Shown one piece after another: positions 2,648-24,032 of a stretch of 64,000 nucleotides of DNA. The DNA is from Candidatus Omnitrophota bacterium (GTDB lineage: Bacteria; Omnitrophota; Gorgyraeia; Zapsychrales; Zapsychraceae), in contig JADFXT010000001.1 of assembly GCA_015233405.1 (NCBI GenBank), positions 18,238 to 82,237 on the forward strand. The letters run 5' to 3'. Position numbers and translations under genes: made by a program. Each line of letters opens with the position of its first letter. Position 1 is the stretch's first letter. Below the pieces are notes generated by a model. The model was not told where the DNA came from and made no database searches. It saw nothing but the letters and a program-made list of their open reading frames with translations.

Positions 2648-2797
2648 GTGAACCGAAACGGCAAACCCATCGTAAGGTGGGGACGCAAAGTTAAAGGGTC
2701 CAAAAGGAATAGGACAGCCTGACTACCGAAGTCGCTGAATGAGTAAGAAATTTTAAGCCTATTCCTAATGATGTACGGGAATAGGCATTTTTTTTGG
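2648..2797 (+). promoter_or_regulatory. c-di-GMP-I (GEMM) riboswitch aptamer plus intrinsic-terminator expression platform
   Basis: Aptamer has GGCAAACC, P2 hairpin CCCAUC-GUAA-GGUGGG (GNRA loop), conserved GGGACGCAAAG, and 3' ACAGCCUGACUACCGAAG (compare Vc2 GGCAAACC...GGGACGCAAAGCC...UACCGAUGG). Terminator GCCTATTCC(2757-2765)/GGAATAGGC(2778-2786) plus T8; its 5' arm can alternatively pair with GGAATAGG (2706-2713) inside the aptamer. Confidence 0.75.
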
Positions 2798-2834
2798 AAG
2801 CTTATGAAGTAAAAGCGATATAAAGAATGTTTTT

Positions 2835-2931
2835 GTCATCCCCGCAATTTTTAGGCGGGGATCCACAAGGGTTGAAGACATGGTTTCCCGACCTGTCTGC
2901 CGACAGGCAGGCAGAAGATTTCGGGAATGAC
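2835..2931 (+). repeat. MITE/REP-like two-hairpin repeat, copy A
   Basis: GTCATCCCCGCAATTTTTAGGCGGGGATCC hairpin ... GGTTTCCCG..CGGGAATGAC hairpin; near-identical to copy at 7436-7531. Confidence 0.85.
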
Positions 2932-2985
2932 AGCAGTGAAAAAGGAATTATCAGTAGTTTTAGGACGAAAAAGAGGGGGCAATAA

Positions 2986-5900
2986 ATGTTTAGAGGGCAA
3001 GGCACAACAAGAAGTAACATACTAAAGACTATGAGTCTTATAGTCCTCTTTATTTTTATCCCTCAGACTTTATTCGCTCAAATCACTCTTCCAACGCCCG
3101 GGACCATGGTCACGACCAGCGCGTCGTTTGTCCCGCCGATGCTCAAAGGGATGAAGGTTGATTTAAAACAGCCGTTTCAATTTGATTTTATTCTCGATAC
3201 CGGAAATTCTAATTTACAGGACGATGATCTAAAAGATGAATCCAATAAGCTCATCCGCTATTTTCTTTCGTCCTTGACCATCCCGGAAAAAGATTTGTGG
3301 GTCAACTTGTCTCCGTATGAGAAAAACCGTATTATTCCCGACGAGTTCGGCACAACGGAAATGGGCCGCGACTTATTGGCGCAGGATTATATCCTTAAAC
3401 AGATAACAGCTTCGCTCATGTATCCGGAAAACGCAACCGGCAAGGCGTTTTGGCAGAAGGTTTATAAAAAAGCCTATGACCTTTACGGCACGACCGATAT
3501 CCCGACGGACACGTTTAATAAGGTGTGGATCGTTCCGGATAAGGCTGTTGTGTATGAGAATCCGACTCCCAAATCCGGAGAGGCAACGGTATTTGTGGTC
3601 GAGGCGAAGTTGAAGGTGATGCTCGAGGAGGATTATTTTGCGACATCGAATACTGTAGGGGCGGGGTTTCCCCGCCATGAGGATAAAGGGCGCGGGAACC
3701 GCGCCCCTACGGCAATAATCAAAGAGGTCATTATTCCTATTTTGGAAAAAGAAGTCAATGAGGGCGCGAATTTCGCGCAACTGCGTCAGGTGTATTATTC
3801 GCTCATTCTTGCTAAGTGGTATAAGGATAGCCTCAAAGAAAGTATCTTAAATCGCAAATATTCCGACCAGAAAAAGGTTGATGGCGTTGACCTGGCCGGT
3901 AAAAAGGATAAACAAGAAATTTATGAGCAGTATCTTAAGGCGTTTAAGAAGGGCGCGTTTAATTACATCAAAGAGGAATACGATCCAACGACGCAGGCGC
4001 TCATACCCCGCAAATATTTCTCGGGCGGGGCGAATTTTAAAATGGAGAAGCCGATTGAAAAGACAAAATTTTTCCCGAGAGTCATGGGTAATGTGGTCGG
4101 AAAGTTAAAAGAAATCGCAGGTGGTTTTAAAAAATGGATTTTATCGCCGAGGCTCAAAGATGCAGCGATGGTGGTAGCAACCGTTGCAACATTAGTCGTG
4201 CATAATGGAGAAAAAAATGAAGAATTCGATCCTGGTGAGGCTGTAAGACCCGTCGCTGCGGTTGTCGATCAAGCAATGGCTGTAGCGGAAGGAGTTAAGG
4301 CAGCTAAGCCGAATGAAACAGCTTTAAGAGAGGGTTTCAAGTTTCCTTATCTAGGCAAAGCCCCACGGGGTTTTATTATGGGAGGCACCACTAGCAATAC
4401 TCCAAGCGAAAATACTAAAGTCAACAATGCCATGATGAATGTTAAAACAGCAGGAAGCCAAGTTCTAAATGTTTTAGGAAACTTTATTAATCCTGACTAT
4501 GTTCGGCAATTTATTTTCGTAGTGACGGGAAGTTTGTCACTTTTAAGTCCCCTGCCATATGATCCTGGTCCTGAGAAGGACTCAAAGAATTGGAACATGA
4601 AACCTGCTATTACAAGTGACCATGCCATGATGAGCGTTAAGTCGGCCATCGGTGTGCTGGCGATGATGTATATGCTTGCTGGATTGGCTATGCCATCATT
4701 CGCTAATACGCCGGGAAATTTGATTAACCCATCGAGTCTGACTGCGCAAGCGCCCCAAACACGTCAGGCCGCGCCGGTTTCTATTTCCATCGACCAGCTT
4801 AAGAATAAAAATGGCATGATATCGGTCAGGGTCATTCCTCATTCTGAGGTTTATCAAGAATATGAAAAAACACTTTTTGCCTTACAAAGCTGGGCTAGAG
4901 ATAATAATTATCAGGAAGTCCGTGATTTAGGGAATTATATTTTGTTCGTCAATAAAGAGGCCGGGATTTCCATCACATTTGAAACCCGCGAGGGCAATAG
5001 CGATAATCAGAATGCGAACCAACAATTGATCAGGCAGGAAGTCAGAGAATTTCAAACAAAAAATAATCAAGCAACGATTGTTTTAAGTGCCGATGGAACA
5101 ACTTCGGAAATATCAACTGCTGATAATCTTTATTTTGCTTCCGGAATGACGGAAAGCCCGGTTATTGTCATCCCTAATAATGTCGATAGCAAGGTCCTTG
5201 ATAAAATTCGAGCCGCGCATCCGAAGGCGACGATTCTTCAGGCGGATGGTGGCGTCCTGATGGATTTTCTTAAACTTCTTCCGTATATTTCTCAGAATGG
5301 CGCGTTAAGTACGAAAAACACTTCATTCTCCGTCGCTGATACATCCAAATCAGCAAATCCTATGAATGCCGGTACAACCGCAATCCTTTTGGCATTACTG
5401 GGCGGCGGTATTGGCGGAGGAATAAGATTTGTGGGAAGGTCCAAGACGCGGTCAAATAATTCGCAGAGTTTTAATGTCAATTTGAGCGGGAGCCCTTCAA
5501 CCAGTAATCCGGGCATAGCAAAGAAAGCACCGAGATATAATGAGAAAGGCGAAGAGATCATTGGTGACTTCGCCATGATGACGAATAATCAGACAACAAA
5601 AATCCCAGCCGCTACCAGCGCAGGAAGGCTCACGCACCTTCAGAAAAAAATGATTGATGCCCTGGCTAAACAAAGACCGGACAAAGGCCAAGAGGAACCC
5701 ATTTATATCGCCGATATCGGATTCGGAGGAATGTCGACCGTGTTTGATTTAGCAAAAGAACTTAGCAGCCAAGGTTTTAAGAATGTTATTTTCTACGGAA
5801 TGGATTACCGTGCTGAAGTTGTTAAAGGCGCGCAAGATTTTGTATCCAAGCAAGGAAACATCGACGGAATAAGCCGTTTTCAATTTGTTAACGGCAGTTT

Positions 5901-6684
5901 TGAAGCTCTTCAGGACAAGGGGCAGTTTGATCTTATCGTAACGTCGAATACCCTGATGTGGTATGACAATGGGACGGATGCGGTCCAGAAATATCGTAAA
6001 AACATGCAACAAGCCCTTAAAGAAAACGGTATGGCGATCGAAGCAACAGGCGGAGGGGAAAAATTTTCTATTGGATATGTTCAGTGGAATAAAAATAATG
6101 TTACTGAAAGAGGGATCATTGACCCCCAGGGGACAGTATCCAGGAGTAATGCTATGATTCAAGAAGAGAGTGTTGAATCAATACAAAAATCCATTGGGGA
6201 AATTTTTCCTATTTTAAAAGATAGCAATAATTTGTCGGCTATTGCTGCTGTTGTCAAAGAACTTCGCGGAAATAATGTCGAAACTCGTCCAGATAAGCTT
6301 GTTAAGTGGATGAAAACAGCCCTATCTTTAGATTTAAACTGTTTAGAAAGCGAACTAGAGTCTAAGTTAGGGATCCAGATGAATGACGTTAACCTTTTTA
6401 AACTTCTCTATGCCGGGCATACAACAGAAGAACGCCTCAACAAAGACAACGCTCCTTTAGCCAATCCTGGTGGTATTGATTTTAATCCGAACCGTCTAGA
6501 GCTTGATAAACAAGGCGCGCATAATGATTTTGAAATGCCGACCAATCCCGCGGACATGGAAAACATCCAGATCAATGGCCTTGTGCCGGTTATTATGAAA
6601 ATCTCGCCGGTCACGAACCTGCCGCTTCTTCTTGGAGCGAATCAAAATAGCGAAACAACCAGTCCGTTACAAGCAGGTTCTTAG
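2986..6684 (+). CDS. Large secreted protein, paralog 1 (signal peptide; N-domain shared with 14975-19825; internal signal-peptide-like segment; putative class I SAM-methyltransferase-like module; conserved C-terminal GGIDxNP domain)
   Basis: RBS AGAGGGGG before ATG. N-region (from ~aa 60 to ~aa 400) aligns with 14975-19825 (DLWVNL..GRDLLAQDY..KVWIVP.KAVVYENP); the first ~60 aa are not shared. MTase-like IADIGFGGMS...FDLIVTSNTLMW. C-term PGGIDFNPNRLELDKQG. Confidence 0.7.
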   Translation: MFRGQGTTRSNILKTMSLIVLFIFIPQTLFAQITLPTPGTMVTTSASFVPPMLKGMKVDLKQPFQFDFILDTGNSNLQDDDLKDESNKLIRYFLSSLTIPEKDLWVNLSPYEKNRIIPDEFGTTEMGRDLLAQDYILKQITASLMYPENATGKAFWQKVYKKAYDLYGTTDIPTDTFNKVWIVPDKAVVYENPTPKSGEATVFVVEAKLKVMLEEDYFATSNTVGAGFPRHEDKGRGNRAPTAIIKEVIIPILEKEVNEGANFAQLRQVYYSLILAKWYKDSLKESILNRKYSDQKKVDGVDLAGKKDKQEIYEQYLKAFKKGAFNYIKEEYDPTTQALIPRKYFSGGANFKMEKPIEKTKFFPRVMGNVVGKLKEIAGGFKKWILSPRLKDAAMVVATVATLVVHNGEKNEEFDPGEAVRPVAAVVDQAMAVAEGVKAAKPNETALREGFKFPYLGKAPRGFIMGGTTSNTPSENTKVNNAMMNVKTAGSQVLNVLGNFINPDYVRQFIFVVTGSLSLLSPLPYDPGPEKDSKNWNMKPAITSDHAMMSVKSAIGVLAMMYMLAGLAMPSFANTPGNLINPSSLTAQAPQTRQAAPVSISIDQLKNKNGMISVRVIPHSEVYQEYEKTLFALQSWARDNNYQEVRDLGNYILFVNKEAGISITFETREGNSDNQNANQQLIRQEVREFQTKNNQATIVLSADGTTSEISTADNLYFASGMTESPVIVIPNNVDSKVLDKIRAAHPKATILQADGGVLMDFLKLLPYISQNGALSTKNTSFSVADTSKSANPMNAGTTAILLALLGGGIGGGIRFVGRSKTRSNNSQSFNVNLSGSPSTSNPGIAKKAPRYNEKGEEIIGDFAMMTNNQTTKIPAATSAGRLTHLQKKMIDALAKQRPDKGQEEPIYIADIGFGGMSTVFDLAKELSSQGFKNVIFYGMDYRAEVVKGAQDFVSKQGNIDGISRFQFVNGSFEALQDKGQFDLIVTSNTLMWYDNGTDAVQKYRKNMQQALKENGMAIEATGGGEKFSIGYVQWNKNNVTERGIIDPQGTVSRSNAMIQEESVESIQKSIGEIFPILKDSNNLSAIAAVVKELRGNNVETRPDKLVKWMKTALSLDLNCLESELESKLGIQMNDVNLFKLLYAGHTTEERLNKDNAPLANPGGIDFNPNRLELDKQGAHNDFEMPTNPADMENIQINGLVPVIMKISPVTNLPLLLGANQNSETTSPLQAGS
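3655..3710 (+). repeat. GC-rich nested palindromic element inserted in frame within CDS
   Basis: GTAGGGGC[GCGGGGTTTCCCCGC]CATGAGGATAAA[GGGCGCGGGAACCGCGCCC]CTAC; sits at the site homologous to the MITE insertion in the paralog. Confidence 0.6.
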
Positions 6685-6735
6685 CTTTTCTTTCCTATTT
6701 GACGCAAAAATTATTTTATGATACTTTAGTGGGTC

Positions 6736-7425
6736 ATGATTAAAGATAATGTAAATAATATTAATAATAAAATTGCCTCTATCTGTGCGCACCTTAGACG
6801 AGACCCCAAAGAGATTGTCCTTGTTGGGGTTACGAAATACGCGGACGTTCCATCAATTAAAGAAGCGGTAGACGCCGGCATTATGCATATCGGCGAAAAT
6901 TACGTCCAAGATGCTGTCAAAAAACTTGAAGAACTTGATACTCTGGGCGTTAAAGTTACAAAGCATTTTATCGGACATTTGCAGACCAACAAAGTTAAGC
7001 TGGTCCTTCCCGTCTTTGATTTGATCCAATCCGTGGACAGCTTCAAGCTCGCCCAAGAAATTGAGAAACAAGCCTTGAAAATCGGCAAAAGGGTTGATAT
7101 TCTGGTTCAAGTCAATATTTCAGGAGAGAAACAAAAATTCGGCGCGGATAAATTGTCCGGCCATCAGTTGGTTAAGGATATTTCAGCGTTAAAAAATATT
7201 CGCATTCTTGGACTTATGACCATGGCGCCCGAGATCGAGGATAAAGATATCATCCGCGAATGTTTTAAGGGCTTACGGTTATTGCGTGATCAGATCGTCG
7301 AGGAAATGGGCCGGCGGGATCATATGGACATGAAATATTTATCCATGGGCATGAGCGCGGATTATGAAATCGCCCTTGAAGAAGGTTCGAATATGGTAAG
7401 AATCGGAAGGGCGATTTTTAAATAA
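6736..7425 (+). CDS. yggS: YggS-family pyridoxal-phosphate homeostasis protein
   Basis: HFIGHLQTNKVK hallmark; ~229 aa alanine-racemase-N-like fold. Confidence 0.85.
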   Translation: MIKDNVNNINNKIASICAHLRRDPKEIVLVGVTKYADVPSIKEAVDAGIMHIGENYVQDAVKKLEELDTLGVKVTKHFIGHLQTNKVKLVLPVFDLIQSVDSFKLAQEIEKQALKIGKRVDILVQVNISGEKQKFGADKLSGHQLVKDISALKNIRILGLMTMAPEIEDKDIIRECFKGLRLLRDQIVEEMGRRDHMDMKYLSMGMSADYEIALEEGSNMVRIGRAIFK

Positions 7426-7435
7426 GTTTTTTGTT

Positions 7436-7531
7436 GTCATCCCCGCAATTTTTAGGCGGGGATCCACAAGATTTGAAAACATGGATTCCCGACCTGTCTG
7501 CCGACAGGCAGGCAAAAGATTTCGGCAATGA
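7436..7531 (+). repeat. MITE/REP-like repeat, copy B
   Basis: GTCATCCCCGCAATTTTTAGGCGGGGATCCACAAG...GGATTCCCGACCTGTCTGCCGACAGGCAGGCAAAAGATTTCGGCAATGAC. Confidence 0.85.
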
Positions 7532-7548
7532 CCTGAAGTGGGGTTGGG

Positions 7549-8370
7549 ATGAAAAGAATGGAAGCATTGACCACTTTTAATATTATGAAAACTAAAATCG
7601 GTTTTATCGGTTGTGGAAATATGGGGCAGGCGATCCTTAAAGGAGTCGTGAAGGATTCCTCTATTCTCGTCGCTGAGAAGGACGCGTCCCGCGTCGCACT
7701 TCTTAAGAAAAAATATAAAGTGGCTTGTGCGGATGTGCCGACCGTGGTTAAGAAATCTAATATTATTATTCTTGCGGTCAAGCCGCAGGATTTTGGCCAA
7801 ATCCTCGACGAGATAAAGGGATCTTTAACAAAGAATCATCTGGTGATTTCTATCGCCGCAGGCATTACGTGTTCGTATATCGAAGAAAGATTAGGGGATG
7901 TCAGAGTTGTCCGCACTATGCCGAACTTGCCGGCGCAGGTTGGTGTGGGCATGACCGCTCTTTGTAAGGGGAAGTTTGCCAAAGATAATGATGTGAAACA
8001 ATCCCAGCGGATCTTTGATGCGATTGGGAAAACCGTTATTGTCGACGAAAAATGGATGAACGCTGTGACGGCCGTCTCCGGCAGCGGGCCGGCGTATGTG
8101 TTTTTATTCGTCGAATGTATGATGAATGCGGCAAAAGCCTTAGGATTCCCGGACGATGTTTCTAAGGATTTGGTCTATCAGACGCTTAAAGGAAGCGTCA
8201 AACTTTTGGAAGAGTCCAGCGACGGGGCAGAAACATTGCGTTTAAAGGTGACGTCCAAAGGCGGAACAACGGAAGCAGCCATCAAAGAATTTTTTGGCGC
8301 AAAGTTAGATGAGATTTTTAAGACGGCCTTGAAAGCAGCGGAAACAAGGGCGAGAGAATTGGCAAAATAA
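7549..8370 (+). CDS. proC: Pyrroline-5-carboxylate reductase
   Basis: GFIGCGNMGQAIL NADP-binding N-term; KGGTTEAAI C-term motif. Confidence 0.85.
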   Translation: MKRMEALTTFNIMKTKIGFIGCGNMGQAILKGVVKDSSILVAEKDASRVALLKKKYKVACADVPTVVKKSNIIILAVKPQDFGQILDEIKGSLTKNHLVISIAAGITCSYIEERLGDVRVVRTMPNLPAQVGVGMTALCKGKFAKDNDVKQSQRIFDAIGKTVIVDEKWMNAVTAVSGSGPAYVFLFVECMMNAAKALGFPDDVSKDLVYQTLKGSVKLLEESSDGAETLRLKVTSKGGTTEAAIKEFFGAKLDEIFKTALKAAETRARELAK

Positions 8371-8382
8371 AAGGAGGCAGGC

Positions 8383-9243
8383 ATGTCCAAAGTCGGGATC
8401 ATCGGCGGGAGCGGGCTTTATGAAATGGAAGGATTTGAAAATAAGGAAGAAGTGGTCATCATCGATACGCCGTTCGGCCAGCCTTCAGGGAATCTGATCA
8501 CCGGGACATTTCAGGGGATTGATGTGGTCTTTATTGCGCGCCACGGCAAAGGCCATCGTTTGTCGCCGAGCCAAATCAACTATCGCGCGAACATTTTTGA
8601 GATGAAACGCATGGGCGTCAGCGCAATTCTATCTGTGTCCGCGGTCGGAAGCCTCAAAGAACATTTAAAGCCGATGGATTTTGTCGTGCCGGACCAATTT
8701 CTAGACCGCACGACCCTTCGGCAAGCGAGTTTTTTTGTGGACGGAATTGTCGGGCACGTAAGTTTTGCCGACCCTGTGGATAAACAACTTGCGAAAATTC
8801 TTGTCGAAGCTGCGAAACAGGCCGGGTCAACGGTCCATGAAGGCGGGACGTATGTCAATATGGAGGGCCCGCAATTCTCGACGAAAGCCGAATCGAATTT
8901 GTATCGCAGCTGGGGAATGGATATTATCGGTATGACCAATATGACAGAAGCCAAATTGGCGCGTGAGGCGGAGATCGCTTACGCTACGCTTGCCGCGGTG
9001 ACGGATTATGACTGCTGGCATCCGGACCATGATTCTGTTACGGTCGAGATGATTCTTAACAACTTGAATAAAAATGTTGCAAAAGCCAAAGAAATCCTTA
9101 GAATTGCTATACCAAAAGTCGGGAAGATTGAAAAGTTTGAGGCGAACGATGCTTTAAAATATGCGCTTGTGACAAGCGGTTCTGTTATTCCCGAGGACAT
9201 TAAAAAGCGATACCAGGTGTTGATTGGAAAATATATAAAATAG
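8383..9243 (+). CDS. mtnP: S-methyl-5'-thioadenosine phosphorylase
   Basis: KVGIIGGSGL; PSxINYRANI; TDYDCW, collinear with MTAP family. Confidence 0.85.
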   Translation: MSKVGIIGGSGLYEMEGFENKEEVVIIDTPFGQPSGNLITGTFQGIDVVFIARHGKGHRLSPSQINYRANIFEMKRMGVSAILSVSAVGSLKEHLKPMDFVVPDQFLDRTTLRQASFFVDGIVGHVSFADPVDKQLAKILVEAAKQAGSTVHEGGTYVNMEGPQFSTKAESNLYRSWGMDIIGMTNMTEAKLAREAEIAYATLAAVTDYDCWHPDHDSVTVEMILNNLNKNVAKAKEILRIAIPKVGKIEKFEANDALKYALVTSGSVIPEDIKKRYQVLIGKYIK

Positions 9244-9257
9244 ACTACTCCGTCACT

Positions 9258-9350
9258 GTCATTCCCGCGAAAGCGGGAATCCAGGATATGTTGTAAATTC
9301 CAGCGCAAAACCGAAAGGAGACACTGGATCCCCGCATGCGCGGGGATGAC
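9258..9350 (-). repeat. MITE/REP-like repeat, copy C (inverted orientation)
   Basis: GTCATTCCCGCGAAAGCGGGAATCC ... GGATCCCCGCATGCGCGGGGATGAC. Confidence 0.8.
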
Positions 9351-9361
9351 ATAATTTCTTT

Positions 9362-12190
9362 ATGGATTATCAAAAAACATTAAATCTGCCTCAAACCGAT
9401 TTTTCGATGAAGGCCGGGCTCGTCGTCAAAGAGCCGTCCTATCTGAAAAAATGGGAGGACGAGGGGCTTTATGCCAAGATCCGCGCGAAATCGCAGGGGA
9501 AAAAAACATTTTTCCTCCACGACGGGCCGCCGTACGCTAACGGCAATATTCACATCGGCCACGCGTTAAATAAAATATTAAAAGATATTATCGTCAAGTC
9601 CCGCACCATGCAGGGCTTTGACGCGCTTTATATTCCCGGCTGGGATTGCCATGGGCTTCCTATCGAGCATCAGCTGTTTAAGGAAATGGGCAAGGACAAA
9701 GCCGAAGTCGATTGCGCGCAATTCCGCAAACAAGCTCATGACTACGCGATGAAATATGTCGGGATTCAGCGTGAGCAGTTTAAACGCTTGGGCGTTTTTG
9801 GCGAATGGGATAAACCATATCTGACGCTCGACACGGAATATGAATATTGGATCCTAAAATCTTTAAGTGAGCTCACTCAAAAAGGGTATGTCTATCGGGG
9901 TGTAAAACCGGTCAATTGGTGTTTTGATTGTGAAACGGCCTTGGCTGAGGCGGAGGTGGAATATGAAGACCACACTTCTCCGTCGGTGTATGTCAAATTT
10001 GAAGTGAACAATTCTGCAATTTTAGGCCTGCCCAAAAATAAAAAAGTTTTTCTTTTGGTCTGGACGACGACGCCGTGGACGCTGTTGGCCAACGTCGCGG
10101 TCGCGGCACACCCGGATTTTCATTATGTGGCGGTCGAAAAAAATGACGAGATTTTTATCCTCGAGGAAAATATTGCAATTAAACTTTTGTCGCAGACGTA
10201 CGAAGAGCATCTTCATAGTCTTATCAGCCCCGTCACAGGCAGTTATTTAACGTCGTTACGTTATACGCACCCTTTTGGGAAATTAAAGGATTGTCCCGTC
10301 GTGACGGCGGATTATGTAACCAAAGACGAAGGAACGGGCTTGGTCCATACCGCACCCGGCCACGGCCAGGAAGATTATCAGACAGGTGTGCGTTGTAAAC
10401 TTCCTGTTTTGATGCCCGTCAATGACCGCGGCGTTTTTACCGTTGAAGGAGCGCCTTTTGAAGGCAAACATGTCCTTAAGGCTAACGCAGAAATAATTCA
10501 GAATTTGAAAGACCGCGGGCTTTTGTTTGATACCAAAGAAATTGTCCATTCCTATCCGCATTGCTGGCGCTGTAAGAAACCCGTCATTTTCCGCGCGACC
10601 CAGCAATGGTTCTTAAAGGTCGATCATAAAAATTTACGCGGGCGCCTCGTCGACATTGTGAAAAGCAGCATTCAGTGGATTCCCGCTGCCGGCCAGGAAC
10701 GCATGCTGGGGATGATCAAAACCCGGCCGGATTGGTGCTTGTCCCGTCAACGATATTGGGGCGTGCCGATTCCTGCGCTTGAATGCAAAGGCTGCAATAA
10801 TAATCATAAACTTTTTATCGAAGTGATCGACCATTTTGCGGAAACCGTCCGTAAAAATGGGACCAATGTTTGGTTTGAGAAAGACCTTAAAGATCTTCTG
10901 CCGAAAGGGTTTAAGTGTCCTGACTGCGGTGGAAACCAATTTGAAAAGACCAAAGATATTCTCGACGTGTGGTTCGATTCCGGTGTGAGCCATCAGGCGG
11001 TTGTTAAAGGCCGGCTTAAGATGTCTCTGCCGGTCGACCTTTATCTGGAAGGCTCCGACCAGCATCGCGGCTGGTTCCAATCTTCGTTGATCCCCGGCGT
11101 TTGCATCGAAAATAAGGCGCCGTTTAAAGCGGTCTTAACGCACGGGTTTGTCGTGGACGGACAGGGACGTAAAATGTCGAAATCGTTGGGTAATGTCATT
11201 TCGCCTTTGGATATTATGAAAAATAGCGGCGCGGACATTCTGCGTTTGTGGGTCGCGTCCAGCTCCTATCATGATGACATCCGGATGTCTCCTGAAAATC
11301 TGGAACGTTTAAGCGATGCCTACCGCAAAATTCGTAATACGTTTCGGTTTATTTTAGGGAATTTAAACGGATTTAATCCTGATACGGATGTGGTTGATTA
11401 TCAAGACCTTTTGGCCCTGGACAAATGGGCGCTATGCCGTTTGTCGACGGTCATGAGCGAAATTTATAAGGACTATGCCGAGTATGAGTTCGCGAAACTC
11501 TATAAGGAGCTCTATACTTTTTGTAACGAAGACCTCTCCAGTTTTTATCTTGACATTTTAAAAGACAGGTTATATACTTCATCACCAATTTCCAGAGAGC
11601 GGAAATCTGCGCAAACAGTTCTTTTTCATATCCTCAATTATTTGGTCAGAGTTTTAGCGCCTTTGGTCACGTTCACGGCTGAAGAGCTTTTCTTTAATAT
11701 GCCGAAGAACAAAGAGTTGGCGCAGTGTTCCAGTGTTCATCTGCTGGAATGGCTTAAAGTTCCGGATGCCTGGAAAGAGGAAGCGGTCCTCGCGCAATTT
11801 GAACGGTTGGTTCATTTAAGGCCGCACATCTTAAAAGCGTTGGAAGATAAAAGACGCGATGGACAGATCGGCAGTTCTCTGGAGGCGAAAGTCATTCTGG
11901 AAAGTGCAAGTCAAAAAGATTTGGAGTATTTAAAAGGATTTGAACGCGCGCTAGCGTCAATATTTATTGTTTCTCAAGTCGAGCTTAAAAGCGTTGCTGA
12001 AGTTACCCAAGGGTTAAGCGAGGAATTTGCGAAAACCCAGGTGAAAATAGAGAAAGCTGACGGACAAAAGTGCCCGCGCTGTTGGAATTATAAAACAGAT
12101 ATCGGGCAGGATTTAGAACATCAAACCCTATGTGCCCGTTGTGTGGCCGCCGTAAAGGAGAGTTTTAATGCCTCAAAAGACAATGGATAA
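9362..12190 (+). CDS. ileS: Isoleucine--tRNA ligase
   Basis: HIGH ([12 protein letters not shown]) and KMSKS (KMSKSLGN) motifs; C-terminal Zn finger CPRCW..CARC; 942 aa. Confidence 0.95.
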
Positions 12191-12554
12191 GAAAAAATTA
12201 GAACATTATAAGAAACTTCTTTTGAAACTCAAAGAAAGTCTTATGCATGATGTTAAGAACATGGCTCATAATACAGATAATCAGGGAAATGAGTCTAGCG
12301 ATGTCTCCGGCCATGTAATGCATATGGCGGATGTGGCGACGGACATGTATGACAAGGAATTTAATTTAGGATTAGCTTCTCACGACAGGCAGCTTTTGCA
12401 AAAGATTGACGATGCGCTCTTGCGTATCGAAAGAGGCACGTATGGTTTTTGCTTAGGCAGCGGCAAACCCATTTCTCAAGCCCGTCTTGAAGCGATTCCT
12501 TATGTAGAATATTGCTTAGAATACCAGGAAGAACTTGAAAGAAAAAAGAAATAA
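12168..12554 (+). CDS. DksA/TraR-family C4 zinc-finger protein
   Basis: C-terminal C-x2-C...C-x2-C-like [21 protein letters not shown]; position between ileS and lspA. Confidence 0.6.
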
Positions 12555-13030
12555 TGAGGGATCTCAAGCGATCTCAATTTGATATTGTTTTAGCTTTTCT
12601 TGTCACAGGCACAGTCGTTTTTCTGGATCAACTCACAAAAAGCCTGTTTTCCAAAATCCTTATCTTAGGGGAATCCCTTCCCGTTATTCAAAACATTTTT
12701 CATGTCACGCTCGTTCATAATACAGGCATTGCCTTTGGTTTTTTAAAAGAGCAGGGTTCTGTTTTTATTGTGATCCCAGCCATCGCCATTATCCTTTTGG
12801 TTTTTAATATTTTCTATTATAAACAAAATGATGAGGCTCTGAGTCGTCCTTATATTATCGGGTTTTCTCTGATCCTGGGTGGTGCGATCGGAAATTTGAT
12901 CGACCGTATCAGCGTCGGATATGTGATTGATTTTATTGATTTTCGCTTCTGGCCGGTGTTTAATGTCGCCGACAGCGCGATCACCATAGGGGCAGTTCTT
13001 ATCGCGGTGAAGTGCTTTAAAACTAAATAA
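12554..13030 (+). CDS. lspA: Lipoprotein signal peptidase (signal peptidase II)
   Basis: FNVADSAI motif, four TM segments, 158 aa, classic ileS-lspA linkage. Confidence 0.9.
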   Translation: MRDLKRSQFDIVLAFLVTGTVVFLDQLTKSLFSKILILGESLPVIQNIFHVTLVHNTGIAFGFLKEQGSVFIVIPAIAIILLVFNIFYYKQNDEALSRPYIIGFSLILGGAIGNLIDRISVGYVIDFIDFRFWPVFNVADSAITIGAVLIAVKCFKTK

Positions 13031-13050
13031 CAGAGTAACACTTCATTATT

Positions 13051-13161
13051 GTCATCCCCGAAATTTTTTGTCGGGGATCCACGATTTTAAAAAGCTGGAT
13101 TCCCGCTTTGGTTCGCCCTTCGCTTACCATCCCGCTTTTGGGCGGGATCGCCGGGAATGAC
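13051..13161 (+). repeat. MITE/REP-like repeat, copy D (extended second hairpin)
   Basis: GTCATCCCCGAAATTTTTTGTCGGGGATCC ... GGATTCCCGC...GGGCGGGATCGCCGGGAATGAC. Confidence 0.8.
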
Positions 13162-13186
13162 AGCAAAAAAGGCGAAAGATTAAACG

Positions 13187-13924
13187 ATGTTTCCCACTAT
13201 TTGTAAAATCGGACCTTTAACTATTTATTCTTACGGACTGATGATCGCCGTAGCGGCCATTGTCTGCACGTGGCTTTTAAGCCGTGATGCGCGGCATCTC
13301 GGCATCTCATCGGACACCATTTCGGATTTGATGTTCTGGATCGTCGTCTTTGGCCTCATCGGGGCGCGGATGCTTTATGTTTTGCTTAATTTGGATTATT
13401 TTATGCCGAACCCGCTAGAGATGGTGATGATCCAAAATGGCGGACTTGCGTGGCAGGGCGGACTTATCATCGGAACAATCGCCGGGCTTTTATTCGTTAA
13501 GAAAAGAAAATTGAATTTGAAGACCATGCTTGATTTATGCGCGCCGTATGTGGCCTTAGGGGAATCCATTGGCCGTGTCGGCTGCCTTTTAAACGGTTGC
13601 TGTTATGGTAAAGAAGTCGGCTGGGGATTGTATTTTCCCATTCATCATGCCAGGCTTCATCCGACGCAGATTTACACGTCTTTAGGGTTATTGAGTATCT
13701 TTGTGATTCTTCGATGGTACCAAAAACAGTCTGAAAGCTCGACCACCGGCAGCGTTTTTGTTTTGTATCTTGTCCTGGCTTCAGCCTTACGTTATTTTGT
13801 CGAATTCTTCCGCGCCGACCATGTTGAGATCCTTTGGGGATTAAGTATCTTTCAACTTGTTTGTCTGCTTTTGCTCTTGACGGCGTGTTACATCTTACTG
13901 CGGTTCGTCAAACCGAAGAAATAG
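13187..13924 (+). CDS. lgt: Phosphatidylglycerol--prolipoprotein diacylglyceryl transferase
   Basis: GGLAWQGG and GRVGCLLNGCCYG signature motifs. Confidence 0.9.
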   Translation: MFPTICKIGPLTIYSYGLMIAVAAIVCTWLLSRDARHLGISSDTISDLMFWIVVFGLIGARMLYVLLNLDYFMPNPLEMVMIQNGGLAWQGGLIIGTIAGLLFVKKRKLNLKTMLDLCAPYVALGESIGRVGCLLNGCCYGKEVGWGLYFPIHHARLHPTQIYTSLGLLSIFVILRWYQKQSESSTTGSVFVLYLVLASALRYFVEFFRADHVEILWGLSIFQLVCLLLLLTACYILLRFVKPKK

Positions 13925-13954
13925 AGCAACCAACTCTACTGGGGAGAGATTTCT

Positions 13955-14857
13955 GTGGCTCTTTATTCTTTTAAAATTAGTTCAGAAAATCAACACCAGC
14001 GACTTGACGTTTTCCTGACCCAGCATTTAACCGACATTCCTTCGCGCGCATTTGTCCAGAAGCTCATTGAGCATGGCCATGTCCGCGTCAACGAAACAAA
14101 AGTCAAGTCACATTACAAACTTCAAATAGGGGAAGACGTCCTCGTCGAAATCCCTCAGGATTTTATCACGCCGCAATATATCGCGCCGGAAGATATTGCG
14201 TTGGATATTTTTTATGAAGACGAATTTCTGTTGGTCATCAACAAGCCCATTGGCATGACGGTTCATCCGGCCCAGGGCTGTTATACGGGAACATTGGTCA
14301 ACGCGCTACTTCATTATTCCAATCAACTTTCGGACGTGAATGATAAAATGCGCCCCGGCATTGTGCATCGGTTAGACAAGGAAACCTCCGGTCTAATGCT
14401 CGTCGCGAAAGATAATATTACGCACACCAAGCTCGCCAAGCAATTCGCACGTCATGAAGTCAAGAAGCGTTACGTTGCTTTAGTCGAGGGGGAAATGCCT
14501 TTTGACGAGGGGAAAGTGGATGTTCCTATCGGCAAGCATCCGTTTCATCACGAGAAGAAAGCTGTATCATTCGCAGATTCTTCCAAAGAAGCCGTGACAT
14601 TTTATCACGTCCTTAAGCGTTTTAACGGCAAGACCTTGGTCGCTTTATATCCTAAGACCGGTCGCACGCATCAATTGCGTGTCCATATGAAACATCTCGG
14701 CCATCCTATTCTCGGCGATGACAAGTATGGAAATAAAAGTTCGTTCCCGCGCTTGGCCCTTCACGCCCAGTCCATCAGTTTTATCCATCCTCAAACGAAA
14801 AAGTATATCGAATTCAGTTTGATGATCCCTCCAGAATTTTCTGATAGTTCTAAATAA
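13955..14857 (+). CDS. rluD: RluA-family 23S rRNA pseudouridine synthase (RluD-like)
   Basis: N-terminal S4 domain; catalytic HRLDKETSGLMLVAK. Confidence 0.85.
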   Translation: MALYSFKISSENQHQRLDVFLTQHLTDIPSRAFVQKLIEHGHVRVNETKVKSHYKLQIGEDVLVEIPQDFITPQYIAPEDIALDIFYEDEFLLVINKPIGMTVHPAQGCYTGTLVNALLHYSNQLSDVNDKMRPGIVHRLDKETSGLMLVAKDNITHTKLAKQFARHEVKKRYVALVEGEMPFDEGKVDVPIGKHPFHHEKKAVSFADSSKEAVTFYHVLKRFNGKTLVALYPKTGRTHQLRVHMKHLGHPILGDDKYGNKSSFPRLALHAQSISFIHPQTKKYIEFSLMIPPEFSDSSK

Positions 14858-14974
14858 TCCCACGCCAGAATATTTTAAAGAAAGCGGTTTCTCCTTAGAT
14901 GCTACCTGGCCTACTCTTTTCTATATAATGTTTTATACTTATATTAGAGTTATAAAAAGAGGGGGAGAACAAAA

Positions 14975-17900
14975 GTGTTGCAATTGTATAGAAATAAAAG
15001 AGTTATAAGATATCAAAAACCTTTCATTTGGGGATTGATTTTCTTTTTTTCGCTTTCCAATATTCCTTTTCCTCAAAAATCTTTCGCTCAAAATATTCCA
15101 GCGGCAGTTAATGTTTTGCCTGCAGCCGCGCAAGCGTTCCAGCCGGTTTTAATCAAGGGAATCAAAGCTTATAAAAATAATCCGCTAAAGTTCGATTTCA
15201 TTTTAGACAAAGGCGAAGCCTTGGGACAAAATGACCCCGCTCGTCCGACGGGAGAGCAAGGGTTACAATTAAAACAAGAAGCCAGCCGACTGATCAAATA
15301 TTTTTTGGCATCTTTGACCGTACCCGAGGAGGATTTGTGGGTGAACTTAAATCCTAAAGAACCGAATAGAATTGTTCCCGGAAAATTTGGCGAGACACAA
15401 ATGGGCCGTGATCTATTGGCGCAGGATTATTTGCTTAAGCAGATTACAAGCGCTTTAATGAATCCGGACGGCGAAACAGGGAAGAAGTTTTGGGAAAGAA
15501 TCTACAGGGAGGTTTATGCAAAGTACGGCTCGACGGACATCCCCGTCGATACGCTCAACAAGGTTTGGATCGTACCAGCAAAGGCCGTTGTGTATGAGAA
15601 TCCGGCGAAAGATGCGGCACAAGCGTCAGCCTTCGTCGTAGAGGCGCGGCTTAAGGTGATGCTGGAGGAAGAATACGAAGCGCTCAAACCGAGCGCGGAG
15701 TCCCGAGCTTCTGCCCCGTTGTCATCCCCGCAATCTTTAAGCGGGGATCCAGGGGTACATAACAAAGCAACTGCTATGGATTCCCGCCTTCGCGGGAATG
15801 ACAAAAAAGGAGATGGGAATGACATGAAGAATGGGCGTGACATGAAGAATGGGAGTGATATAAGTTCTTCAATCATTAAAGAAATCATCATCCCCGAGAT
15901 AGAGAAGGAAGTCAATACCAGCAAAAGTTTTTCGCCGCTGCGCCAGGTTTACAACAGTCTTATCCTTGCCACATGGTATAAGCGGAAACTCAAAGAGAGT
16001 ATTCTGGGGAAGGTTTATTTAAACAAGAACAAAACCATGGGCGTTGATATCGTCGACAAACAAGAAAAACTAAAGATCTATGAGAATTATTTGGCAGCGT
16101 TTAAGAAAGGCACGTGCAATCTCATCAAGGAAGAATATGACCCGGCGACAAAAGAGATTATTCCAAGAAAATATTTCACCGGCGGTGCGCGGATGGCTGT
16201 GGACAAGGCTATGGTGGTAACAAACAAACTGCCTAAGGGATTCATGAAAGCCTTGGGTGTATTATTTCTTTGTTCAAGTGGATTATTTGTTGAGGAAACT
16301 TTTGCGCAAGCGCCGGTAGATTCCCAGCAGGTATCCTTGGCCTCGCAAAAAGAGCATTGGATGAGCCTCGCGAAGACAAATTATGCCGAGGTTTTTCAGC
16401 ATTCTGGGGAATTTATTAATGAACCTTGGGCCATGGACGTTCTTAAGGCCGCAATTTTAGCCACGCCGAACGGCCCATTTTATACGGGTTCCACAGCTGC
16501 TATGGAAAACTTCGATTATTATTTAAAATATGAAAAAGGATGGGAATTCTTTAGATGGATGATGCAAAGATATCCTGAATACGGTTATAGTTATATGGGT
16601 CTGTTTAGAGATAAACCTTATGCTTTAAGAGTGTATGAGCTATTGGCAGAATTGGATCCCGTGGGTATGGTTGATAGGTTGACTTTAAGTGAATATTATG
16701 GCAGGCCTGTTGAAATTGAATCCCCTTACGAAATACCGGAAAACGTTTTGAAACAGATTTTAGCTGGAAGCTCTTCAGATCGGGTCAAGTTGGTCCTTGC
16801 GATCCTACGGCTTTCTATACCACGCGACGAAAAAAAATGGTTGGCACGATTGGCGCCGGATATTTCCAGTGGGAAGTTGACCTTAGAAGAGGCCCAAATC
16901 ATAGTCAAGGATGCGAAAAAATATTTTGAGCGGGCCGTTTCAGTTTATCAATCTCAACCGCCGGAAATAAAAGCGGCCACCTCATGGAGTTTTTTCTATG
17001 AGATAAAGGATTTTTATCTTGGAGAACATTTATCTCCTCTTTATAAGTCTGACAAGAAAAAATTTATGGAAGAAATTCAGGGTCTTGATGCGTACCGGAT
17101 TTATCTTATTTTGGAAAGCTTCAGAGGTAAAGCTTCTTCTAAATTGGAGTCTTTTGATGCGATATTCCCCGTCTTTCTGCAAAAAGTTAAGGCGGAAAAA
17201 TTCAGTATTTCTCAAGCCTCAAGCAGTGCGTATTCTTTGATGGAATTCTTTTCTGATATCAATAGGAACCATCAGGGAAGGAATTTGATGGAGAGTCTTT
17301 CTAAAGAAGAACGGTTGGCCGTTATTCAAAAGATGTCCGAAGCGTTGAATTCCAGGGAGCTTTTCTTTTATTCAATTGATAGAATGAAATACACAATAAC
17401 CATCATGAGTTTTATAGATGATAATTTAGACCTTTTTGACAAGAACGCTCAGGATTATTTAAAACAGGTCAGGGCCAAGCTTCATATTGTTATGGTCGAC
17501 TTGATCAAGAAAGACATCGATGCGCTTGCGGTAGTTGATCAAATAAGGGATCCCGAGTTGATTAATTTGGTCAGAGACATGGCTTTCCAGAAGGTGAAGG
17601 AGCCCCGTTTTAACTCGTCGTTTTTGCTAACCTTTGACCACTATATCAGTCAACCCTGGGGGCAACAGATTCTATTAGAAATCTTGACGAGCGATCCAGC
17701 GAGAGCTCTTAACAATATGGACTTATTAAAGAAAAAATACCCTATTGATTACAATAACCCGCTCATAATGACTTTTAATCAAATCGCGAGTTTGAAAATA
17801 AAACAGTCTGAAAAAGAAAGATTGGCATTGCTTCTTGATGAGCTGGTTAATAAGCGCTTGTCATTAGAAGAAGCGCAGGAATTAATCAAAGATGATTTCT

Positions 17901-19825
17901 TATTGATGCGCCATTTAATCGGAATTTTATCCCGTGATTCTTTAATCGGGCGTGAAGCCATAAAAAGCTTTCTTTCTGATTTTTATCTTAAGTTTGTCCG
18001 GGAAATCAACAAATTACATGAACAGCCGGATTCCGTGCGTTTTAAATCCGTGGAAAAAGCCACGCCGGAGGATTTGTATAAGATCATCGTCTTTGGCGAG
18101 GATGAAGTTTACACGTCGACGTTTAACGGGCTTTTTACCCGGATGATAGAACGTATGAAAGCCCAGGGCATTTCCGGCGAGTCCGGCGAGGAGCTTTTAA
18201 ATTCTGCTGGCCGTTATAAAGTCCGGCCTTTCTTTAGATTGATGGCGAGTTTTAATCGGCTCAATGAATTTCTGGCGACCATGAGCCCTAAGGAGCAGGA
18301 CAATCTTATCGCATATGTTGTGCAGAGTATTGAGAAAGAAAAATATTTCTTAAAAGAAGCTGCTGTTGTGGCGGATATTTTTAGTGTGGTCAAAGACCCG
18401 AAGGTCCTTAAAAAAATTCAGATATTGATCAAGCAGGAATTCCTGCGCGTTCAAAAAGACAAGAATGAGCAAGGCATGGTTCTCTACGGATTGTTAAACG
18501 GCTTGTTTGGTGCTCGGGCTGTTATTGATGGACAATGGTTTAAAGATATGGCGAATCAATTTGGGCTTCCGGATATTTCTGTCTTGTCCCAAAAAACACT
18601 TTTTAATCAGCGGTATCAGAATATTCAACGGCATTTCTTTTATGATGATGAGGACGGTAAGTTATCTTTTGCGGATTTTCTGCAGACTTATCAGAACGAT
18701 TCCAGGAATTGGGAAATCAAAACCTTTCCGACCTATGTCCAGGTTACGTCCAAACACGGGTTTCCGATCGTTATGTATGCCAACCTTCCTGACAGCGTCG
18801 AGAATGGAAATGCCGCTATTGAGGGTGAGTTGTTAATGAAAGGAAACAAACCCCAGGTGATCGTTCATCATGGGCATAGTTATCACGTCGATAAAACCAT
18901 AGAGAAGATCGATTCCGCGGTGACGTTCGTTTATCTGGGCAGTTGTGGTGGATTCGGCCATGTGAGTGAGATTCTTAATTTGTCTCCCAATGCACAAATT
19001 TTTTCCACGAAAGGGACGGGAACGGCCGTTGTCAACGGGCCTTTATTTAAAATAATTAATGACGAGATCCGGCAAAAAGGGATGGTAGATTGGCGAAGTT
19101 TGTGGGTCAAGGCTGAACACAAATTGGGTAATGTTTCGGAATTGCGCAACTACATGTCGCCGGACCGGAACTTAAGCGTCCTATTTTTAAAAGCCTACAA
19201 CAAGAAATTGGAAGAGTTGAAGAATAAATCTTCCATGCCAGCGGATACGCTGCAGCATTCGTCTGTGAACAATCCGGATAGACAGTGGTTTGAAAGAATA
19301 CAACAAAGACGTAATGAATTGAACGCGTCTCTGCAAAATGTTTTGGCAACTAATGGTGATGTCCTGGTCGGACAAGCACGGGAACGTATTTTAAGCAAAG
19401 AGGACGCTCAGCGCCTTAAGAAGGCCCAGCGTCAAGTGGATTACATTCTGGCGGAGCAAGTTGAGCTTAACAGGCTTTTGACTGAGGCACGAAATAATAT
19501 CATTCAACAAAGACAAGCGCCACAGCAGGAAGAAAATCAATTTATGTATGCTTTGGCCCGTCGGGTTTCTCAAGAAGCCGGGAATAATGTTTTTGCTTTA
19601 GAGCACACAGATGCCGCTATGATTACACAAAAAACTCCGGGTGGGATTGATCTTAATCCGCAAAAGATGAATCTTGATATTCAAGGCAAAGGCGAGGATT
19701 TTACAATCCCAGACGGATTTGAGTATCTTTTAAAGGAAGATATCGCAGGTTTTAGCCCTGTCATTTTTGATATTACTCCGATATCTCCTGATAAAATCAC
19801 AGGAATTTTACAGAATTTTCACTAA
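14975..19825 (+). CDS. Large secreted protein, paralog 2 (signal peptide; shared N-domain; in-frame MITE insertion; internal signal-peptide-like segment; C-terminal GGIDxNP domain)
   Basis: RBS AGAGGGGGAG; N-terminal ~400 aa collinear with 2986-6684; C-term PGGIDLNPQKMNLDIQGKGEDF. Confidence 0.7.
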   Translation: MLQLYRNKRVIRYQKPFIWGLIFFFSLSNIPFPQKSFAQNIPAAVNVLPAAAQAFQPVLIKGIKAYKNNPLKFDFILDKGEALGQNDPARPTGEQGLQLKQEASRLIKYFLASLTVPEEDLWVNLNPKEPNRIVPGKFGETQMGRDLLAQDYLLKQITSALMNPDGETGKKFWERIYREVYAKYGSTDIPVDTLNKVWIVPAKAVVYENPAKDAAQASAFVVEARLKVMLEEEYEALKPSAESRASAPLSSPQSLSGDPGVHNKATAMDSRLRGNDKKGDGNDMKNGRDMKNGSDISSSIIKEIIIPEIEKEVNTSKSFSPLRQVYNSLILATWYKRKLKESILGKVYLNKNKTMGVDIVDKQEKLKIYENYLAAFKKGTCNLIKEEYDPATKEIIPRKYFTGGARMAVDKAMVVTNKLPKGFMKALGVLFLCSSGLFVEETFAQAPVDSQQVSLASQKEHWMSLAKTNYAEVFQHSGEFINEPWAMDVLKAAILATPNGPFYTGSTAAMENFDYYLKYEKGWEFFRWMMQRYPEYGYSYMGLFRDKPYALRVYELLAELDPVGMVDRLTLSEYYGRPVEIESPYEIPENVLKQILAGSSSDRVKLVLAILRLSIPRDEKKWLARLAPDISSGKLTLEEAQIIVKDAKKYFERAVSVYQSQPPEIKAATSWSFFYEIKDFYLGEHLSPLYKSDKKKFMEEIQGLDAYRIYLILESFRGKASSKLESFDAIFPVFLQKVKAEKFSISQASSSAYSLMEFFSDINRNHQGRNLMESLSKEERLAVIQKMSEALNSRELFFYSIDRMKYTITIMSFIDDNLDLFDKNAQDYLKQVRAKLHIVMVDLIKKDIDALAVVDQIRDPELINLVRDMAFQKVKEPRFNSSFLLTFDHYISQPWGQQILLEILTSDPARALNNMDLLKKKYPIDYNNPLIMTFNQIASLKIKQSEKERLALLLDELVNKRLSLEEAQELIKDDFLLMRHLIGILSRDSLIGREAIKSFLSDFYLKFVREINKLHEQPDSVRFKSVEKATPEDLYKIIVFGEDEVYTSTFNGLFTRMIERMKAQGISGESGEELLNSAGRYKVRPFFRLMASFNRLNEFLATMSPKEQDNLIAYVVQSIEKEKYFLKEAAVVADIFSVVKDPKVLKKIQILIKQEFLRVQKDKNEQGMVLYGLLNGLFGARAVIDGQWFKDMANQFGLPDISVLSQKTLFNQRYQNIQRHFFYDDEDGKLSFADFLQTYQNDSRNWEIKTFPTYVQVTSKHGFPIVMYANLPDSVENGNAAIEGELLMKGNKPQVIVHHGHSYHVDKTIEKIDSAVTFVYLGSCGGFGHVSEILNLSPNAQIFSTKGTGTAVVNGPLFKIINDEIRQKGMVDWRSLWVKAEHKLGNVSELRNYMSPDRNLSVLFLKAYNKKLEELKNKSSMPADTLQHSSVNNPDRQWFERIQQRRNELNASLQNVLATNGDVLVGQARERILSKEDAQRLKKAQRQVDYILAEQVELNRLLTEARNNIIQQRQAPQQEENQFMYALARRVSQEAGNNVFALEHTDAAMITQKTPGGIDLNPQKMNLDIQGKGEDFTIPDGFEYLLKEDIAGFSPVIFDITPISPDKITGILQNFH
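15721..15868 (+). repeat. MITE copy E inserted in frame in CDS, plus 18-bp tandem repeats derived from its 3' end
   Basis: GTCATCCCCGCAATCTTTAAGCGGGGATCC...GGATTCCCGCCTTCGCGGGAATGAC, then GGGAATGACATGAAGAAT / GGGCGTGACATGAAGAAT / GGGAGTGATATAAGT (translated GNDMKN-GRDMKN-GSDIS). Confidence 0.8.
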
Positions 19826-21712: not shown

Positions 21713-21744
21713 TTTTTTGTCATCCACGAATGCTTTTTTGATTT

Positions 21745-24000: not shown

Positions 24001-24032
24001 GGATTTTTTATCATTGAAAATCCGAAGCACGA

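Follow-up and report, generated by a model that had tools for sequence, protein, structure and literature searches.

Two paralogous proteins of an Omnitrophota genome belong to a phylum-confined family with conserved head and tail domains, variable cargo and a D-x-A-M junction motif

Introduction

Two long open reading frames (ORFs), here called A and B, stand out in a 64-kb stretch of DNA from a Candidatus Omnitrophota metagenome-assembled genome (MAG; locus-tag prefix HQL24); we refer to this whole stretch as the window. A preliminary description, made from the letters of the DNA, had read A and B as two paralogous secreted proteins that share an N-terminal region and a C-terminal GGIDxNP domain, and they raise the question of what kind of protein holds such different middle parts between such similar ends. 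Omnitrophota are widespread, uncultured, host-dependent nanobacteria, and it is at present a puzzle whether their very long multi-enzyme proteins are exported, whether they are cut, and what they do. We find that A and B belong, by sequence, to a large family confined to this phylum, with a fixed layout of predicted signal peptide, head domain, variable cargo and tail domain. We also describe a short motif, D-x-A-M, which marks the module junctions and had gone unnoticed in the preliminary description.

Head, tail and signal peptide of A and B

Both ORFs were found at the sizes first given for them (1232 and 1616 amino acids, aa). BLASTP aligns the two head regions at 46% identity over 434 aa (E 1e-96), collinearly and from the N-terminus, and the two C-termini at 42% identity over 50 aa (E 1e-8); on these alignments A and B are paralogues. 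One detail of the first reading has to be corrected, namely that the first ~60 aa past the signal peptides are not shared: the BLAST alignment and the family consensus (LxLPxPGxMV..LKGxK..P..FDFIxDxG) both start directly after the cleavage site, this part being more weakly conserved than the rest. The family as we define it from sequence has a signal peptide, a head of ~320–370 aa ending in RKYF(S/T)GG, and a tail of ~60–70 aa with the pattern GG[IV]Dx(N/T)..PVIxxIxP..LG, and all three can be recognized in both A and B. The C-terminal motif recurs in other proteins and its likeness between A and B is beyond chance, since a tail profile built from other family members recovers both (hidden Markov model (HMM) E-values in Table 1). 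When the head and tail profiles were applied to the six-frame translation of the window, A and B were the only matches.

A basic n-region, an apolar core and a final FA|Q are readable at both N-termini, in keeping with the signal peptides first described, and the prediction of a Sec-type signal extends to the family in general. Among 187 complete N-termini, 181 have K/R followed by an apolar run of at least nine residues (a heuristic measure) and 160 have A-Q or A-E just ahead of the head. The NCBI start of A is an ATG at 3031, 15 codons downstream of the one used here, giving a protein of 1217 aa and dropping the basic n-region; translation probably begins at the ATG at 2986, which supplies the R, R, K n-region that signal peptides typically have.

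The motif [RK][RK]YF[ST]GG closes the head in 105 of 121 aligned members. One or two copies of GG[IV]D[FLMT] are present in 113 of the 121, the last copy lying 53–123 aa (mode ~70) from the C-terminus, and the tail consensus is GGIDLNP..L.L...G.G......P.D...L....I.G..PVII.I.P..NLP..LG. Across 83 genomic loci, head and tail occur together in 59 complete ORFs. Only four ORFs uncut by a locus end have a head alone, one of them through a frameshift split in locus L079, and, ORFs beginning at the edge of a locus aside, only two have a tail alone, one being the other half of the L079 gene and the other lying in locus L001. Head and tail subtypes are also paired: heads with '..WYKKKI' go with tails with '..IKF..DPA.L.QLQNAPGF', and heads with '..WYK.(N/T)L' with tails with '..I.I.G(L/F)'. 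Average-product-corrected mutual information (MI-APC) between head and tail reached 0.23 vs a permuted maximum of 0.13, with one head position coupled to many tail positions. This covariation reads as subfamily linkage and is no proof of contact.

The tail-only ORF of L001 (P0187; 147 aa, L001 6001–6444) has no signal peptide and lies 205 bp 3' of a complete family gene (1900–5796) that has its own tail, so that P0187 resembles an orphan cassette. Similar short tail-only ORFs are found on long contigs (P0145, P0173, P0205, P0220, P0229, P0231 and P0240).

The N-terminal domain had been described as belonging to no recognized family, and our searches bear this out. Neither head nor tail has any match in Pfam (E<=1) or NCBIfam (E<=0.1), their profiles find nothing relevant among PDB sequences, and the head model matches no known fold. 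That AlphaFold2 model (mean predicted local distance difference test (pLDDT) 65, predicted template modelling score (pTM) 0.66) is alpha/beta with long helices, and has a confident alpha/beta core at about residues 10–255 of the model; the most conserved stretch of the head, WVNLSPYE..FG.TEMGRD, is nevertheless modelled with low confidence. A full-length AlphaFold2 model of the member P0104 (758 aa) places the GGIDLNP hairpin at a pLDDT of ~78, and its linkers bearing the D-x-A-M motif have low confidence.

[quoted passage not shown] Positional analogy alone speaks for this, in that a conserved C-terminal domain is found on diverse secreted proteins. The failure of head and tail to match any Pfam or NCBIfam model, PDB sequence or (for the head) fold speaks against it, as does the tail alignment, which over its ~60 aa shows no terminal transmembrane (TM) helix, basic cluster or aromatic beta-signal. 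We regard this explanation as highly improbable.

A large family confined to one phylum

With A as query, a word-indexed search gave over 4,820 significant proteins, and all those that carry a name are from Candidatus Omnitrophica/Omnitrophota. These matches cover just the first 26–34% of A, at 46–62% identity, and the precomputed Pfam content of the matched proteins is widely divergent. A phmmer search with the head (A aa 30–375) against 1.84 billion cluster representatives gave 7,994 proteins, 6,242 of them at E<=1e-30; the 7,994 are representatives at 50% clustering, and all the named ones are again Omnitrophota. In these matches the head always starts at about aa 30–60, in proteins that range in length from 376 to 4,003 aa. 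Finally, when a single genome from each species was scanned, at least 587 genomic loci turned up, every one of them in an Omnitrophota MAG; some of these are mislabelled 'uncultured Planctomycetales'. Multiple loci can occur in one MAG, with six in JABDGZ01 and five in CAZFON01 among the best 80 loci; the source MAG of the window has at least A, B, P0031 and P0035.

We conclude from these searches that the family is confined to Omnitrophota. The paralogy first noticed for A and B stands, and they are no mere pair but part of a family with ~8,000 representatives in one phylum. Small genomes carry several copies each. Because the family is absent from Pfam and NCBIfam and yet counts ~8,000 representatives at 50% identity, it makes up a sizeable share of what is labelled 'hypothetical' sequence in this phylum. 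An artefact, be it chance similarity, mis-assembly or the fusion of ORFs by sequencing error, can be excluded: E-values are 1e-96 and lower, the same architecture occurs thousands of times in independent metagenomes, and the same genes were called by NCBI. Nothing was found in favour of such an artefact.

The modular, fused nature that had been suspected is real. As judged from the Pfam content of the family, the cargo between head and tail is hypervariable and of cytoplasmic enzyme type. It includes methyltransferases, adenylate kinase, NUDIX, HEAT, HATPase_c/GHKL ATPases, PP2C, and M48 and M3 peptidases, and also PGK, Glu/Leu dehydrogenase, acyl-CoA dehydrogenase, radical SAM/B12, PRTase, GNAT, HAD and WD40/VWA.

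The D-x-A-M motif at module junctions

In an unbiased count of gapped 4-mers over the inter-domain regions of 99 proteins, D.AM was the top word, with 137 occurrences vs 8.5 expected from shuffles. This was replicated in a second, independent set, made up of 59 genes from genomic DNA (72 vs 7.4), so that the overall enrichment is 10–16x. The same 59 genes gave N.AM 20 times vs 5.7 expected and SSP[VIL] 13 times vs 2. D.AV and D.AL were at background there, and the Met of the motif is for this reason a specific part of it. The logo is D-[ARKQ]-A-M-[TLV]-[STAV], drawn from 413 copies in 252 proteins, of which 160 have at least one copy. A has four copies where 0.16 are expected, plus two N/S-x-A-M variants, and B has two where 0.15 are expected; the other 51 window proteins (16,810 aa) have five vs 1.4 expected.

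The motif is placed where modules meet. It is found 1–30 aa past FSGG at the end of the head, 5–25 aa ahead of GGID in the tail, and ~10–20 aa ahead of recognizable modules such as adenylate kinase (P0008, P0011) and PGK (P0075), and the spacing from motif to motif is typically 200–500 aa. In A and B it directly precedes internal signal-peptide-like segments, so that its Met stands where the initiator Met of a precursor would be. The synonymous codons used for D and A vary and no Shine-Dalgarno-like sequence was seen upstream of the motif ATG, which places the constraint on the protein rather than on the DNA. Two candidate explanations were rejected on these grounds: internal translation starts at the motif Met, given the missing Shine-Dalgarno-like sequence and the varying synonymous positions, and a DNA-level recombination site, given the codon variability.

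The motif may be a processing site or may simply record how the genes were built. On the latter account D-x-A-M is a scar of gene fusion: the modules are captured whole ORFs that kept their initiator Met, and sometimes their own signal peptide, and the proteins work uncut. The Met indeed occupies the place of a native start, 9–14 aa ahead of the P-loop strand of adenylate kinase (P0008, P0011) and, in A and B, 5–12 aa ahead of the h-region of their signal-peptide-like internal segments; the residues that follow it (T, S, A, V) are like those of real N-termini; and stand-alone tail ORFs begin with a Met ~20–30 aa ahead of GGID. A scar would leave unexplained, however, why D (−3) and A (−1) are conserved at the protein level despite varying codons, and why Met was retained instead of drifting to Leu or Val (D.AV and D.AL being at background), and neither a DNA-level site nor a ribosome-binding site is present at the motif. 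We consider the scar account unlikely.

Gene neighbourhoods

The interval between A and B contains housekeeping genes (YggS, ProC, purine/MTA phosphorylase, IleRS, DksA, LspA, Lgt and RluD), and a hybrid histidine kinase gene lies upstream of A. Starting 205 bp past B is a cluster like those of type II secretion systems (T2SS) and type IV pili (T4P), with genes for a GspE-type ATPase, GspF, three pseudopilins, a DUF4900 protein and a PilM-like protein. The preliminary description had proposed a check for co-occurring secretion genes. In the family, such genes do not accompany the family genes as neighbours: only one of 83 loci has a GspE homologue at a distance of 7 kb or less, and all-against-all clustering of the neighbours at the 83 loci found no conserved neighbour. 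Its place beside a T2SS/T4P cluster is thus peculiar to B and not general in the family. P0063, P0095 and P0187 have unrelated neighbourhoods. We therefore reject a conserved operon partner and a cis-encoded secretion system.

The largest neighbour cluster comprises minus-strand ORFs at 16 of the 83 loci, and the next is found at six. The 16-locus cluster probably represents antisense ORFs over the head region, and such ORFs are most likely no genes but side effects of conservation in the sense sequence. In the window, antisense ORFs of ~135 aa lie over both head coding regions, at 3373–3780 (−) and 15514–15924 (−).

The density of T2SS/T4P-type genes in the window is itself unusual (20030–28200 and 36520–54060). 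GspE-type ATPases are encoded at 20030, 36520 and 38308, GspF at 21958 and 40592, DUF4900 proteins at 25099 and 45344, PilM at 50066 and a secretin at 52675–54060, in addition to at least five N-methyl pilins/pseudopilins.

Comparison with known systems

The closest published likeness is to the giant proteins of Omnitrophota termed 'Archaeovorins', which are predicted to bear a signal peptide and/or TM helices, have a domain-less N-terminal region, and are suspected to be cleaved after translation (West-Roberts et al. 2023, 10.1101/2023.11.21.568195; 2026, 10.64898/2026.06.07.730766). According to the same two preprints the domains of the giants include methyltransferase, HATPase_c, GNAT, HAD, HD, NUDIX, radical SAM, HEAT, PPDK_N and AAA_5, and some giants adjoin T2SS or pilus loci. 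The preprints invoke C39 or S8 peptidase domains, define no conserved head, tail or junction motif, and report no cleavage points (10.1101/2023.11.21.568195; 10.64898/2026.06.07.730766). Our family shares with the giants the phylum, the predicted signal peptide with an N-terminal region of no known domain behind it, the cargo vocabulary and the suspicion of cleavage, and B also adjoins a T2SS locus. It differs in size, A and B being well below the catalogue threshold of >=10,000 aa (10.64898/2026.06.07.730766), and in that most members have no TM helices; moreover, no C39, S8 or other peptidase Pfam match is found in A or B at E<=1. The family of A and B looks like a set of mid-sized relatives of these giants. 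Long modular multi-enzyme proteins of the Omnitrophota envelope or secretome have thus already been reported, and we could not find a description of a mid-sized family with this head, tail and junction motif: a search of a literature collection found the motif strings in no paper there, and Seymour 2023 makes no mention of the relevant terms.

More distant systems are alike in layout. MARTX toxins have conserved N- and C-terminal regions around a variable effector array, which is released by cleavage at short inter-module sites; they also contain RTX repeats rich in glycine and a C80 cysteine protease domain inside the chain, and leave the cell through a T1SS with no Sec signal peptide. The common point with our family is the pair of conserved ends that bracket variable modules. 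In contrast to MARTX, the family bears a predicted Sec-type N-terminal signal, and no RTX repeat or C80 domain was matched by Pfam or NCBIfam models in A, B, P0011 or P0026.

Polymorphic toxins (CdiA/TpsA, Rhs, MAF) resemble the family in a conserved N-terminal trafficking region, hypervariable payloads and a short motif at the payload junction, which in the toxins is VENN or PxxxxDPxGL. The orphan cassette-like tail ORF downstream of a full gene in L001 is a further likeness. Unlike in these toxins, the variable part of our family is central and the C-terminus conserved, the payloads look like ordinary enzymes rather than nucleases or deaminases, and no immunity-like gene is conserved downstream at the 83 loci; Pfam gives no TPS, Rhs, YD or autotransporter beta-barrel match in A or B.

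T9SS cargo of Bacteroidota likewise combines a Sec signal peptide with a small conserved C-terminal beta-rich domain on diverse proteins, and polyprotein processing is known for the gingipains. Our family belongs to another phylum, its tail is shorter (~60 aa) than the T9SS domain, a conserved head is missing from T9SS cargo, and no T9SS CTD/Por secretion-tail model in NCBIfam or Pfam matches the tail.

Export, topology and possible function

That these proteins are secreted, and that the tail has a sorting role, we infer from the sequence features given above. The internal signal-peptide-like segments noted early in both proteins are present (A aa 548–573, core 551–572; B aa 419–446). In the family such hydrophobic segments are a minority trait, missing in 84 of 105 members; where found, they usually lie 20–35 aa after FSGG and have a positively charged N-side.

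Our tentative proposal, held at somewhat less than even confidence, is that the family provides a chassis, specific to the phylum, for the export or delivery of effector polyproteins with several modules, which would be exported by Sec, handled through head and tail, and perhaps processed at D-x-A-M as a candidate site. The head and tail would be generic handles, by which one machinery encoded elsewhere exports, anchors or delivers any cargo in between. A protease cutting A|M at D-x-A-M would release the modules, each of which would then start with Met, and the modules would serve as effectors, on or inside the cell that these host-dependent nanobacteria use as host or prey. Candidates for the protease or transport genes involved are S41/Ctp-type peptidases, which cut pre-D1 after D-L-A, C39 peptidases, in view of the invariant GG bordering both domains, and secretins. 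Functionally, such proteins would be akin to MARTX or polymorphic-toxin polyproteins. The effector role is proposed because the cargo consists mostly of enzymes that use nucleotides or cofactors.

Several observations weigh against this proposal. About one third of the members (92 of 252) have no D.AM, and P0187 and the other stand-alone tail-only ORFs have no signal peptide. Dedicated partner genes are missing and the neighbourhoods are unconserved. In around 20% of members positive charges flank an internal hydrophobic segment on its N-side, and in A a possible stop-transfer helix (aa 795–817) would keep the methyltransferase and the tail cytoplasmic. Sec exports unfolded chains, which sits awkwardly with cargo that depends on cofactors, such as radical SAM/B12 (P0096). 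The head model is of only moderate confidence (pLDDT 65), and export, delivery and cleavage are predictions from sequence.

The main rival explanation is that the proteins are self-serving envelope scaffolds, in which head and tail anchor or organize multi-enzyme proteins at the membrane or in the periplasm of the producing cell, whose own metabolism or signalling the enzymes would serve; where there are TM helices, the cargo would be cytoplasmic. The cargo fits this, being mostly housekeeping-type and signalling enzymes that need ATP, S-adenosylmethionine (SAM) or NAD; so does the strongly basic C-flank of the hydrophobic segment of A, which would put the methyltransferase and tail inside the cell. 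Family genes are located among housekeeping genes, and the 2026 preprint sees most giants as anchored in the inner membrane (10.64898/2026.06.07.730766). Against scaffolding at the producer's envelope, in the 84 of 105 members with no internal hydrophobic segment the entire chain would be exported behind the signal peptide, and the extreme cargo turnover (as in the orphan cargo of B) and the several paralogues per genome look more like those of conflict or effector genes than of core metabolism. We think the scaffold explanation improbable, although less so than the fusion scar discussed above.

The proposed chassis might be carried a step further, to a new phylum-specific sorting or delivery route in which a dedicated protease at D-x-A|M frees Met-starting enzymes at or in the host cell, with the same junction code perhaps present in Archaeovorins; we consider this extended version doubtful. 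If it were true for Archaeovorins, D-x-A-M would give the cleavage map that published work calls missing. The head profile, the tail profile and D-x-A-M meanwhile offer three sequence handles, the last of which predicts the exact boundaries of modules and candidate cleavage sites.

Cargo and feature coordinates of A and B

The methyltransferase-like module that had been suspected in A is confirmed by three Pfam models above their curated cut-offs: PF13847 (Methyltransf_31; 33 bits vs cut-off 27, aa 908–1018), PF13649 (Methyltransf_25; 29.9, cut-off 27) and PF08241 (Methyltransf_11; 29.2, cut-off 21.2). IADIGFGGMS and GMD are readable in A and fit motif I and the beta-2 acidic residue of a class I SAM methyltransferase, and NCBIfam gives a weak BioC-like match. 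B has no Pfam match at all, and its cargo has no PDB match and a single homologue in 5.8 billion proteins. The B head has a low-complexity insertion in a variable loop, at about aa 235–300.

At about aa 1290–1330 of the B cargo (window 18800–19100) we noticed VIVHHGHSYHV ... FVYLGSCGGFG, a His...Cys arrangement that by eye resembles clan-CD cysteine peptidases; no profile or PDB match supports this pair (HHGHS...GSCGG).

Table 1. Window coordinates of ORFs A and B and of the features recognized in them
Feature	Position	Strand	Remarks
ORF A	2986-6684	+	1232 aa; family member with methyltransferase cargo module; NCBI P0001
A signal peptide, aa 1-31	2986-3078	+	n-region R, R, K; apolar core; ..LFA|Q; predicted from sequence
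A head domain, aa 32-348	3079-4029	+	Ends RKYFSGG; head HMM E 3e-171
A junction motif DAAM, aa 392-395	4159-4170	+	
A junction motif DQAM, aa 428-431	4267-4278	+	
A variant NNAM	4423-4434	+	
A junction motif DHAM, aa 545-548	4618-4629	+	Directly 5' of internal signal-peptide-like segment
A internal hydrophobic, signal-peptide-like core, aa 551-572, ..AGLAMPSFA|N	4636-4701	+	Kyte-Doolittle 1.75 over 19 aa
A glycine-rich hydrophobic segment, aa 795-817, then RSKTRS	5368-5436	+	Possible stop-transfer helix
A junction motif DFAM, aa 861-864	5566-5577	+	~20 aa ahead of broader methyltransferase module (aa 883)
A class I SAM-dependent methyltransferase module, aa 883-1025	5632-6060	+	Pfam core 908-1018
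A variant SNAM	6145-6156	+	
A tail domain, aa 1149-1227	6430-6666	+	Tail HMM E 2e-31; GGID 6469-6480, PVI 6586-6594
ORF B	14975-19825	+	1616 aa; P0347, HQL24_00145; family member with orphan cargo
B signal peptide, aa 1-38, ..QKSFA|Q	14975-15088	+	Predicted from sequence
B head domain, aa 39-404	15089-16186	+	Ends RKYFTGG; head HMM E 6e-148
B junction motif DKAM, aa 410-413	16202-16213	+	
B internal signal-peptide-like segment, aa 419-446: KGFMK + ALGVLFLCSSGLFV + EETFAQA|P	16229-16312	+	
B cargo, ~1,100 aa	16313-19609	+	No recognizable domain
B tail domain, aa 1541-1604	19595-19786	+	Tail HMM E 2e-19; GGID 19640-19651
B junction motif DAAM, aa 1546-1549	19610-19621	+	6 aa ahead of GGID

Palindromic elements in the window

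A 25-nt palindromic element (GGATTCCCGCCTTCGCGGGAATGAC) resembling repetitive extragenic palindromic (REP) sequences has four copies in the window (9258–9282, 15778–15802, 23207–23231 and 23366–23390) vs 0 expected. Three are intergenic; the copy at 15778–15802 lies in frame in the variable loop of the B head, where it reads MDSRLRGND, and is reminiscent of the Rickettsia palindromic elements found inside genes. A second palindrome, at window 3655–3710 in A, has 22-nt arms that are 86% complementary (GTAGGGGCGGGGTTTCCCCGCC / GGCGCGGGAACCGCGCCCCTAC). It too is in frame and in the same variable head loop, reading VGAGFPR..GRGNRAPT, and a similar peptide stands at the same place in the homologues P0008 and P0011.

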